Assembly (NCBI GenBank): GCA_023128195.1
Contig: JAGMEL010000054.1
Span: 1 to 34,146, forward strand
DNA length: 34,146 bases
Direction: 5' to 3'
DNA from: a candidate division WOR-3 bacterium
GTDB lineage: Bacteria > Hydrothermota > Tepidihabitantia > SM23-42
Shown here: positions 22,707 to 24,318 of the stretch, in pieces
Numbering within the stretch: the stretch's first letter is position 1
How the letters are laid out: each line of letters opens with the position of its first letter
Made by a program: the position numbers and the translations under genes
Notes under the pieces: model-generated
The model's database searches: none
The model's input: only the letters and a program-made list of their open reading frames with translations
What the model was told of the DNA's origin: nothing

Positions 22707-23324
22707 ATGAGAGGTAAAGAACCAGTGTGGGAAGATAGTTACAAAATAAAGAAATCAGGTTGTGCTTTTAGCGGAAAACCCAGTTCAGAATTCTATGATT
22801 TAGTCAAACAGTTGACCCCTCGCGCAAAAGTTCTTGACCTTGGTTGTGGTGATGGCAGGAATGCTATTTTCCTTGCCGAGAATGGATTTGATGTAACTGC
22901 AGTAGATATTTCAGAAGCAGGAATCAATAAATTGCAATACTGGATACATAAAAAAGGTCTTTCAATTGAAACCATTGTTGGCGATATACGATATTACAAG
23001 TTTGCAAACACTTTTGACATGATAATTGCTCACGGATGTCTTCATTTGATAGAACGAGAAGACTGGATGTCACTTATTGAACAAATCAAATCTCATACTA
23101 ATGTAGATGGCTACAACGTGATAGCAGTATTTACAAATAGGTTGCCACAACCTGATGATTTGAAGGAATTCGCATTAGGATTGTTTTACGAAGGTGAACT
23201 TTTTACATACTATAAAGATTGGAAAATAATTCTTCAGCAGAGTTATATAAAAGAAGACGAACACCCAGGTGGGATCAAGCATAGACACGCAATAAACAAA
23301 CTTGTTGCACAAAAACTAGATTAA
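22707..23324 (+). CDS. TehB-like SAM-dependent methyltransferase
   Basis: VLDLGCGDGRNAIFLAENGFDVTAVD (motif I), DMIIAHGCLHLI, GYNVIAVF and YEGELFTYYKDW are collinear with the TehB methyltransferase domain. Confidence 0.8.
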   Translation: MRGKEPVWEDSYKIKKSGCAFSGKPSSEFYDLVKQLTPRAKVLDLGCGDGRNAIFLAENGFDVTAVDISEAGINKLQYWIHKKGLSIETIVGDIRYYKFANTFDMIIAHGCLHLIEREDWMSLIEQIKSHTNVDGYNVIAVFTNRLPQPDDLKEFALGLFYEGELFTYYKDWKIILQQSYIKEDEHPGGIKHRHAINKLVAQKLD

Positions 23325-23345
23325 CATGCGATCAGATTGGAGAAG
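23322..23345 (+). repeat. junction element copy A: TAACATGCGATCAGATTGGAGAAG
   Basis: It begins with the TAA stop of the TehB-like gene and provides GGAG upstream of the ATG at 23349. Confidence 0.85.
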
Positions 23346-23348
23346 TGT

Positions 23349-23807
23349 ATGTTTTTAGATGTCAAAGATACTTTTGTGGATGCTGCGAAAGACAATTCAG
23401 TGGATGAACTTAGACGTGCTATCGTTGGGGCATTAGAGAGATATTGCAGTGAGATTAAAATCAATGAAAAAATGGATATTGTATGGCGGGCATTAGCATT
23501 CCGATTGTTTTTCACAAGGACGAAACTCTCGGGGACGAAAGGAATCATAGTTATCCGCAGGAATCTTCATGGAGGTTGGAACCTCAACGTACAGATTTCT
23601 ATTATCAACAGGATCATTATTGGGCTTGTGGTGGCAGCACTCATTGCCATACTAATGTCTGGTGGAAAAATAGTGTGGGAATTTAATTTATTCATGTTTA
23701 TTACTTTTACACTTGGTGTTATTATAGATCGCGGAATGTTAAGGAGTTGGCTACACAAAATCATAAAGAAGCAAATTGAAAAAGTAAAATCAACAATGAA
23801 GGAGTAA
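23349..23807 (+). CDS. hypothetical membrane protein (soluble N-domain plus 2 TM helices)
   Basis: The ATG at 23349 is preceded by GGAGAAG; the ORF-track TTG at 23337 lies inside the repeat. Two hydrophobic helices are IIIGLVVAALIAILM and FNLFMFITFTLGVII. No family recognised. Confidence 0.55.
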   Translation: MFLDVKDTFVDAAKDNSVDELRRAIVGALERYCSEIKINEKMDIVWRALAFRLFFTRTKLSGTKGIIVIRRNLHGGWNLNVQISIINRIIIGLVVAALIAILMSGGKIVWEFNLFMFITFTLGVIIDRGMLRSWLHKIIKKQIEKVKSTMKE

Positions 23808-23808
23808 C

Positions 23809-23832
23809 TAACATGCGATTAGATTGGAAGAG
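23809..23832 (+). repeat. junction element copy B: TAACATGCGATTAGATTGGAAGAG
   Basis: It starts 1 nt after the TAA stop (23805-23807) of the membrane protein gene. GAGGTG and the NUDIX ATG at 23848 follow. Confidence 0.85.
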
Positions 23833-23847
23833 AATTGAGGTGAAATA

Positions 23848-24297
23848 ATGGCACGAGCACCTTTCCAAGTATTGATATTTCCATATATCAAGGATAAACA
23901 AGGACTTATTGAATATGCAATATTTCGAAGATCAGATGGCAACTATTGGCAGGCGATTGCTGGTGGTGGTGAAGAGGGAGAGACACCGGAAGAAGCAGCA
24001 AAGAGGGAAATCCAGGAGGAAGCAGGAATACCAAAAGATTGTGATATTACAGCATTAGATTCTAAGGCATACATTCCTGTTATTGGTGTAACAGGTGAAT
24101 ACACATGGGGTGATGATGTTTTTGTTATACCTGAATATACATTTGGAGCAGAAGTAGAAAATAGACAACTCAAATTATCAAAGGAACATAGAAAATATCA
24201 ATGGGTTAACTATGAAGAAGCAATGAAAATGCTTAAATGGGATAGTAATAAAAATGCACTTTGGGAATTGAATGAACGTCTTATAAGGAAAAACTAA
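23848..24297 (+). CDS. NUDIX hydrolase
   Basis: Nudix box GGGEEGETPEEAAKREIQEEAGI (GX5EX7REUXEEXGU). 149 aa. Confidence 0.85.
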   Translation: MARAPFQVLIFPYIKDKQGLIEYAIFRRSDGNYWQAIAGGGEEGETPEEAAKREIQEEAGIPKDCDITALDSKAYIPVIGVTGEYTWGDDVFVIPEYTFGAEVENRQLKLSKEHRKYQWVNYEEAMKMLKWDSNKNALWELNERLIRKN

Positions 24298-24318
24298 CAT
24301 GCGAGCAGATTAGAGAAG
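24295..24318 (+). repeat. junction element copy C: TAACATGCGAGCAGATTAGAGAAG
   Basis: It begins with the TAA stop of the NUDIX gene and is followed by a 24-codon ORF. Confidence 0.85.

Follow-up and report, generated by a model that had tools for sequence, protein, structure and literature searches.

What could hold about 24 nt nearly constant at the ends of consecutive genes that are otherwise unrelated? The question is raised by a 34,146-nt stretch of DNA from a candidate division WOR-3 bacterium (contig JAGMEL010000054.1 of assembly GCA_023128195.1, positions 1 to 34,146; this whole stretch is called the window below), in which a first-pass annotation had noticed three copies of such an element at the stop codons of successive genes. 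We assign a probability of roughly 0.55 to the reading that the element joins gene cassettes in one particular lineage and has two linked roles, as a site of exchange in DNA and as a translational coupler on mRNA. Comparison of the loci that carry it establishes the general anatomy of the junction, a predicted unstructured element of the coding strand that lies between co-directional small accessory genes and usually gives or follows the stop codon of the upstream gene.

Three copies of the motif in one gene array

Exact matches to the pattern TAACATGCGANNAGATTRGA fell on the + strand at 23322, 23809 and 24295, the same three positions reported by the first-pass annotation, and no further match was retrieved from the window even with 3 mismatches permitted. 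The number expected by chance in the window is 0.08, and none of 100 shuffles reached three matches. The copies are spaced almost equally, at 487 and 486 nt. A clustered regularly interspaced short palindromic repeat (CRISPR) array was considered and rejected because the 486-487 nt spacing is filled by full-length protein-coding genes; in CRISPR arrays, direct repeats of about 23-50 nt alternate with non-coding spacers of comparable length.

The array, all of it on the + strand, opens with a sigma70-like promoter (TTGACA-16-TATGAT, 11/12 match, 22667..22694) that precedes the first gene, and no motif lies upstream of that gene. The first cassette (22707..23324) encodes a TehB-like S-adenosylmethionine (SAM) methyltransferase of 205 aa (PF03848, 9.5e-30), and its stop codon is the TAA at positions 0-2 of motif copy A (TAACATGCGATCAGATTGGAGAAG, 23322..23345). 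A leader open reading frame (ORF) that begins at the ATG of this copy (leader ORF A, MRSDWRSVCF*, 23326..23358) overlaps the start of the second cassette at 23349 by 10 nt. This second cassette, ORF2 (23349..23807), encodes a predicted membrane protein of 152 aa that matched no Pfam family; ORF2 is also the first cassette in contig L046 and has paralogous tandem copies in L043. Copy B (TAACATGCGATTAGATTGGAAGAG, 23809..23832) begins 1 nt past the TAA of ORF2 and has AAGGAG 8 nt before its ATG, and the TAA of its leader (leader ORF B, MRLDWKRIEVK*, 23813..23848) overlaps the ATG of the third cassette as TAATG. The third cassette is a NUDIX hydrolase gene (149 aa, 23848..24297), a NudB-like dATP/dihydroneopterin-triphosphate pyrophosphohydrolase going by source names, whose stop codon is the TAA of copy C (TAACATGCGAGCAGATTAGAGAAG, 24295..24318). 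These gene calls agree with the placement of the stop codons in the first-pass annotation, and the AAC that it had noted directly upstream of both copies B and C was also seen. Copy C carries a TGG to TAG change, which creates a stop within its leader frame, and a rare GC at positions 10-11 that it has in common with the NUDIX cassette of contig L064.

Downstream of copy C the first-pass annotation had described a 24-codon ORF as a decayed fourth unit, and this description is borne out. The ORF (MVIGCGGSG..., 24323..24397) is what is left of a P-loop kinase cassette and shares its frame with the motif ATG; intact P-loop kinases follow the motif in frame in the same way in L011, L056 and L057 (MRSDWKK[IV]M[IV]IGCGG.GKTT). 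At its end lies a degenerate terminal copy of the motif (TTAATGTCAGATTATTGGTAA, about 24377-24397) that is homologous to the terminal copy of L046 (TTAACATACGGTCAAATTGTTGG). A hairpin with a T7 run, previously taken as a terminator at this place, was not called as one, and the site overlaps a second sigma70-like promoter (CTGACA-16-TATAAT, 11/12, 24398..24425); the supposed hairpin is more likely the spacer of this promoter than a terminator. The promoter serves a conserved transglutaminase-like gene downstream and is the right border of the variable region.

These borders recur elsewhere. The first gene of an array has a sigma70-like promoter to itself and no motif before it (the window, L014 and L063), and a decayed copy closes the array (the window, L046 and L057). 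The terminal copies of L046 and L057, which have no gene to serve, have lost the ATG.

Distribution and consensus of the motif

A scan of species-representative genomes for the exact pattern returned 10 stretches in 5 genomes. Nine of these belong to four metagenome-assembled genomes (MAGs), two labelled Ca. Stahlbacteria and two labelled unclassified bacterium, with several contigs per MAG; the remaining stretch comes from a MAG that carries the label Bacteroidetes and is probably a chance match. MAGs that bear the motif include GCA_030627995.1, GCA_049647165.1 and a sister bin of the latter, CSMAG_2384 and CSMAG_1267. The exact pattern was also present in 27 contigs from metagenomes, and the names of many of these are of a sediment type. 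Collections of viral, phage and plasmid sequences gave chance-level partial matches only. Exact matches, degenerate copies found with mismatches allowed and new contigs reached via NUDIX homologues together make up 62 distinct instances. Several motif-bearing loci are present per genome in a WOR-3/Stahlbacteria clade, and the longest arrays, in L057-L062, have five successive motif junctions in a series that includes a 161-aa product and, further on, GrpB, NUDIX, GNAT, GNAT and P-loop kinase genes.

True copies share the extended consensus rAC-TAACATGCGATCAGATTGGAAGAG (22-26 nt) and vary only at positions 10-11 and in the purine tail. About 20 of the bases are near-invariant between genomes, whereas the flanking coding DNA there is just 70-85% identical. 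In nearly all instances the motif and the genes on either side of it share one strand. The suspicion that copies elsewhere would be enriched at gene 3' ends proved correct: the motif's own TAA is the upstream stop codon in 36 of 62 instances, and in another 9 of 62 the stop lies 4 nt upstream (TRR-C-TAAC). Adjoining genes encode SAM methyltransferases, NUDIX proteins, GNAT acetyltransferases, GrpB, SET and P-loop kinase proteins, CAAX proteases and small membrane or secreted proteins. A repeat of the repetitive extragenic palindromic (REP), bacterial interspersed mosaic element (BIME) or miniature inverted-repeat transposable element (MITE) type was rejected, as the motif has no palindrome, is strictly co-oriented with genes and is anchored on stop codons. 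Repeats of these types are palindromic or bounded by terminal inverted repeats, and they are scattered in either orientation over the intergenic regions of a genome.

The first-pass annotation did not recognize the motif from any described system, and neither did our searches. Rfam gave nothing at the junctions at gathering score and, at E<=1, two chance-level matches that both fell elsewhere in ORF2. A literature search for the motif sequence, its reverse complement and MRSDWK retrieved no paper, and conceptual searches led only to work on integrons and on bicistronic designs.

Gene content changes at the edges of the motif

Whether related loci gain or lose whole genes bounded by the motif was a point raised by the first-pass annotation, and three sets of loci display such changes (the window against L046, the NUDIX cassette of L064, and L012/L013/L014). 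Contig L046 is a sister of the window locus, and both of its flanks are about 95% identical to those of the window. The shared left flank comprises the Usp gene and about 70 nt beyond, with homology breaking at 22544/22545, and the shared right flank comprises the terminal degenerate motif, the promoter and the transglutaminase-like gene. Between these flanks the window has TehB, ORF2, NUDIX and the kinase remnant, whereas L046 has ORF2 and a GrpB-like gene. The ORF2 blocks of the two are about 95% identical from 3 nt before the ATG to the end of the downstream motif, where identity is abruptly lost. Homologues of the transglutaminase-like gene in L051-L055 (71-77% identity) sit in unrelated neighbourhoods and so provide no extra allelic versions of the window locus, leaving L046 as the sole one. 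At the point on the left where the variable region begins, a candidate attI-like site (TGTCAACAT, 22536-22544) was rejected because its likeness to CTAACAT is too short.

The NUDIX block of L064 and L065 matches that of the window at 98-99% identity, beginning near +22 in the upstream motif and ending near +17-20 in the downstream one. In L064 and L065 this block is flanked by a gene for a 315-aa methyltransferase and a 488-aa gene, both unrelated to the neighbours in the window, and the rare GC at positions 10-11 moves together with NUDIX in the two contexts (window and L064). Three further contigs have the motif between different pairings of the same classes of gene, namely methyltransferase and NUDIX in L012, methyltransferase and kinase in L013, and NUDIX and kinase in L014. 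One MAG has two NUDIX cassettes, 94% identical, in different arrays. More generally, the neighbours of NUDIX, GrpB, GNAT, kinase and ORF2 genes differ from genome to genome.

Among all instances, 21 pairs (from 6 upstream gene families) share the left flank only, with homology ending at about +22 to +24, and 8 pairs share the right flank only, with homology ending at about 0 to -1. On these alignments, homology between loci ends at the two edges of the motif, and the motif is the only sequence shared there.

One locus has a different kind of change. Comparison of L057 (4600-4960) with L058 and L059 shows a 110-nt deletion whose right end coincides with the left edge of a motif copy (TAAC to AAAC); the deletion removes a stop codon and fuses two ORFs. 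An aberrant event at the motif site may have left this trace.

Candidate translation signals in the junction

The first-pass annotation had listed translation coupling among possible roles of the motif, and this proposal is supported and sharpened by two features, an upstream Shine-Dalgarno (SD)-like tract and an ATG within the motif that had been overlooked. The ATG lies at +4, and the motif reads TAA-C-ATG followed by the codons CGA, TCA, GAT, TGG and AAG, which is a stop and then M R S D W K. This ATG is invariant among intact copies. Of 47 usable instances, 11 have a downstream gene that shares its frame. Signal-peptide and lipoprotein N-termini are among these in-frame fusions, and no other start is obvious close by; in L031, for example, a lipoprotein-like N-terminus (MRSDWRKIQIILGIVAVLTLLSC) is fused in frame to the motif ATG. 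In 26 other instances the ATG opens a leader ORF of 4-25 codons. In 13 of the 26, the stop codon of this leader falls between -1 and +5 nt relative to the downstream start, against a mean of 7.4 for a composition-matched null (P=0.005), and the classes of stop/start arrangement are ATGA (five times), GTGA, TTGA, TAATG (copy B of the window) and TAGTG.

Sequences on both sides of the motif ATG resemble ribosome binding sites. Upstream, the tract tested was the 13 nt ending 5 nt before the ATG, which are mostly the last codons of the upstream gene. An SD 4-mer was present 5-18 nt upstream of the ATG at 21 of 62 junctions (34%) versus 24 of 216 control gene ends (11%; Fisher p=6e-5), and the purine content of the tract was 0.73 at junctions versus 0.59 at control gene ends. 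The upstream SD-like site is an enrichment across junctions and not a universal feature. Downstream, the 3' part of the motif (GGAAGAG/GGAG at +17 to +23) lies at SD distance from many starts at +26 to +33, and most downstream starts lie at +26 to +42. Pairing of the motif with 16S rRNA was weaker than that of shuffles, with the E. coli sequence (rrsA) standing in for that of WOR-3. Variants of the motif are mostly non-synonymous (S to L, A or P; R to Q, G or L) while synonymous positions are fixed, suggesting a constraint on the nucleotides and not on the peptide.

Two additional observations concern copies in unusual settings. At the junction of the 306-aa and 235-aa genes in L014 and at position 5813 of L017, a decayed copy now forms the actual N-terminus of a protein (MESDKDLEP... 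and MRLDKELDR..., respectively), which apparently shows the motif absorbed into coding sequence. At L020 (3717-3750) a motif copy is not preceded by a gene end and instead has GGAGG and then ATG-TAA directly upstream (AGGAGGGATGTAACTAACATG); a 'start-stop' mini-ORF of this kind could deliver ribosomes to the motif as they terminate.

A candidate cassette junction with two roles

We consider it quite probable that on mRNA the junction works as a natural 'bicistronic design' (BCD). Ribosomes finishing the upstream gene, or recruited by the purine-rich or SD-like tract in its last codons, would restart at the motif ATG. The product of this restart would be either a leader of 4-25 codons, with a second SD-like stretch (GGAAGAG) inside it and an end at or near the next start codon, or the next protein, lengthened at its N-terminus by MRSDWK(K/R). 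Because ribosomes would stop and restart at the motif, any cassette placed behind it would be expressed regardless of its neighbours.

At somewhat less than even odds, the motif may also be a DNA site at which a dedicated, sequence-specific enzyme excises, inserts or exchanges cassettes. This possibility is raised because the near-invariance of about 20 bases exceeds what translation needs and because the breakpoints lie at the motif edges. Intact copies would persist since they alone propagate, with decay setting in at terminal or old ones; the decay of terminal copies together with the conservation of about 20 bases points to sequence-specific recombination machinery. More tentatively still, the WOR-3/Stahlbacteria lineage may carry an integron-independent gene-cassette system, in which single genes are captured, excised and shuffled at an asymmetric, unstructured site of about 24 nt. 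Candidate machinery for such a system would be a recombinase, or an RNA-guided or reverse-transcription-based mechanism, and the site would have evolved as both the stop signal of one cassette and the bicistronic starter for the next.

Several points weigh against a junction with these two roles. All results presented here are computed from sequence. The share of in-frame fusions, about one quarter, equals the random-phase expectation, and the proximity of leader stops to downstream starts is moderately significant (P=0.005; 0.07 for the ATGA class alone) in instances that are partly non-independent, as some are homologous cassettes. The crossover point within the motif is not resolvable from the pooled breakpoint profile or from the linkage of variable positions. 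Contigs from the same population show little cassette turnover, and some junctions within the same arrays have no motif or have decayed copies. The motif also lacks both the dyad of tyrosine and serine recombinase core sites and a hairpin of the attC type: folds of 66-nt windows around the junctions were no more stable than those of shuffles (z = +0.06 to +1.09), and the best dyad in the consensus has 4 of 8 pairs, which 66% of shuffles equal. The lack of dyad symmetry speaks against a core site of the classical kind for tyrosine or serine recombinases, Xer/dif included. Finally, no recombinase gene was found among the scanned ORFs of the 34-kb window or in the annotated 20 kb of L001. The first-pass annotation had proposed a search for a nearby recombinase outside the window, and no recombinase family recurs in the 151 proteins that flank other copies (64 adjacent and 87 neighbouring).

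Alternative explanations

The main alternative is that the motif is a translational adaptor only, selected for expression, and that cassettes are exchanged by generic short-homology or illegitimate recombination after DNA uptake. All of the translation-signal evidence fits this explanation, as do the absence of a recombinase among the window ORFs and flanking proteins scanned, the absence of a dyad and the presence of arrays at several loci instead of one platform. However, a stop, an ATG and an SD sequence suffice for translation, and an adaptor has no need of about 20 invariant bases where flanking identity is 70-85%. The duplication of single cassettes in different arrays of one MAG also counts against it. 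Efficient homologous recombination usually requires a minimum length at or above 22-26 bp, which puts the motif at or below that minimum. We regard an adaptor-only motif as unlikely, although it is the explanation to be taken most seriously beside a cassette junction with two roles.

A weaker alternative is that the motif is a site of mRNA control or processing for an RNA-binding protein, a small RNA or an endoribonuclease, and that modularity is secondary. In favour of such a site, the motif is asymmetric, single-stranded by prediction and strand-specific at cistron borders, and it has conservation at the nucleotide level with a tolerated 2-nt centre (positions 10-11). No complementary sequence was seen, though, and all convincing exact matches on both strands of the genome collection are copies at junctions. 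The RNA processing that the first-pass annotation had suggested likewise gained no evidence from the analysis. The lack of an Rfam match and a complementarity to E. coli 16S rRNA no better than that of shuffles also speak against it, and processing alone leaves the coincidence of breakpoints and motif unexplained. We consider this explanation improbable.

It is very improbable that conservation acts at the protein level, with the motif encoding a functional N-terminal tag or leader peptide MRSDWK(K/R). A peptide function would fit the 11 downstream genes, out of 47, whose frame is that of the ATG; in several of them MRSDWK(K/R) supplies the charged n-region of the signal peptide. In most copies, however, the downstream gene is out of frame, the leader peptides of 4-25 residues are variable past codon 6, substitutions are mainly non-synonymous with synonymous sites fixed, and the leader of copy C stops at codon 5.

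Canonical integron attC sites, as in clusters of attC sites lacking integron-associated integrases (CALINs), or module borders of the Xer/dif type are less probable again. Promoterless, co-directional small accessory genes such as GNAT, NUDIX and methyltransferase genes are typical integron cargo, and the cassettes are of this kind, with content that varies between relatives. The only likeness in the site itself is that AACTAAC at the 5' end loosely resembles the inverse core RYYYAAC; the 3' core GTTRRRY is absent downstream of the motif in copies A-C. Stop codons and next starts are separated by only 24-40 nt, with neither hairpin nor dyad in between. No intI was found, nor any other integrase Pfam match that would indicate an intI/attI/cassette promoter (Pc) platform beside the array, in the scanned window ORFs, the Pfam annotation of L001 or the 151 flanking proteins, a search that covered the loci only. 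All copies are in direct orientation, in contrast to inverted pdif pairs.

A local triplication or assembly artefact, suggested at first sight by the near-equal spacing, is the least credible explanation of all, as the genes between copies are unrelated, the motif occurs in dozens of other contexts and is far shorter than assembler k-mers, and independent assemblies of different samples yielded the arrangement of the window in at least 10 contigs, one of them from a MAG labelled candidate division WOR-3. We regard a peptide function, canonical attC sites and an artefact as effectively excluded.

Relation to known systems

The WOR-3 arrays resemble integron cassette arrays in that promoterless, co-directional, unrelated small genes lie under one upstream promoter, a conserved element stands right after each stop codon, content differs between close relatives and the same classes of cargo are carried (GNAT, NUDIX and methyltransferases). 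In integrons, ORF-11 of attI1 and short ORFs within attC couple the translation of cassettes, and leader ORFs (ORF-11/ORF-18) span attI1 and couple translation of the first cassette, with in-frame cassette fusion possible (PMC8876359); the layout of the WOR-3 junction matches these leader ORFs. Unlike attC, an imperfect palindrome of 57-141 nt (R''-L''...L'-R') that is defined by its structure, a hairpin on one strand, the WOR-3 junction is 22-26 nt of conserved primary sequence. It has neither a hairpin nor a GTTRRRY core, and an integrase, attI and Pc platform was not found around the loci. WOR-3 genomes also differ in having several short arrays each, and translation coupling would be built into every junction instead of attI alone. 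CALINs likewise have cassette-like arrays at several genomic positions with no recombinase gene nearby; they consist by definition of bona fide attC sites, whereas the WOR-3 junctions lack attC features.

The pdif sites of Acinetobacter plasmids, which are recognized by XerC/XerD, are 28-bp sites that bound modules in varied contexts with no linked recombinase gene. The enzyme is a housekeeping one of the chromosome; each site is built as an 11-6-11 dyad, and the two sites that flank a module are inverted relative to each other. The WOR-3 motif is similar to pdif in being a short conserved site that bounds discrete modules with no linked recombinase gene, and differs in having no dyad, in always being direct and in overlapping coding signals.

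Bicistronic designs are reportedly the subject of work by Mutalik in 2013. In the synthetic BCD, a first SD sequence (SD1) precedes a short leader cistron of fewer than 20 codons that contains a second (SD2) in its 3' part, and the leader terminates at or across the start codon of the gene to be expressed, which insulates expression from context (PMC5995908). The WOR-3 junction appears to have a comparable layout of SD1, leader, SD2-like stretch and stop/start, as does natural ATGA/TAATG coupling. In contrast to the BCD, the WOR-3 element, a putative coupler, occurs naturally and recurs from one junction to the next; it is joined to the stop codon of the gene before it, and its sequence is conserved across genomes. 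By analogy, the element appears to work like an integron-like cassette junction combined with a bicistronic translational coupler.

If this is true, cassette arrays with standardized junctions are not unique to integrons, and an uncultured phylum reached the same solution differently, with a short, unstructured site that is defined by its primary sequence and expresses cassettes lacking a promoter and a ribosome binding site at every junction. The motif would then be a concrete means of finding cassette arrays that are invisible to attC-based tools, and would give a handle on new recombination machinery via phylogenetic profiling against motif presence. It would also be a natural, evolution-tested counterpart of the synthetic BCD that gives context-independent expression. 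Even as a coupler only, it is an intercistronic element of about 20 near-invariant nt across dozens of unrelated gene pairs that is absent from Rfam and the literature searched.

Other features of the window

About 3.5 kb downstream of the array, three successive SAM-methyltransferase genes (27803-29876; 251, 220 and 220 aa) are joined by 4-nt start/stop overlaps, without the junction motif, and constitute a conventionally coupled operon. The window also has repeats of other kinds. A non-coding direct repeat of about 165 nt occurs at 30192-30362 and 33503-33655, 3.3 kb apart and 91-96% identical, with one copy upstream of the gene for a protein sorted by the type IX secretion system (T9SS) and the other near tRNA-Leu(CAA). 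Two intergenic sites (8076-8115 and 19575-19614) have a near-palindrome of 40 nt (TCGTTTTGTCATTTAGGCAATTGACAAAACGA...) in versions that are 80% alike; its look is that of an operator, and a TetR-family gene lies at 11386-12054. Short runs of heptamers resembling TGGGATT/TGGAGTT are present at 1-29 and 6766-6808.

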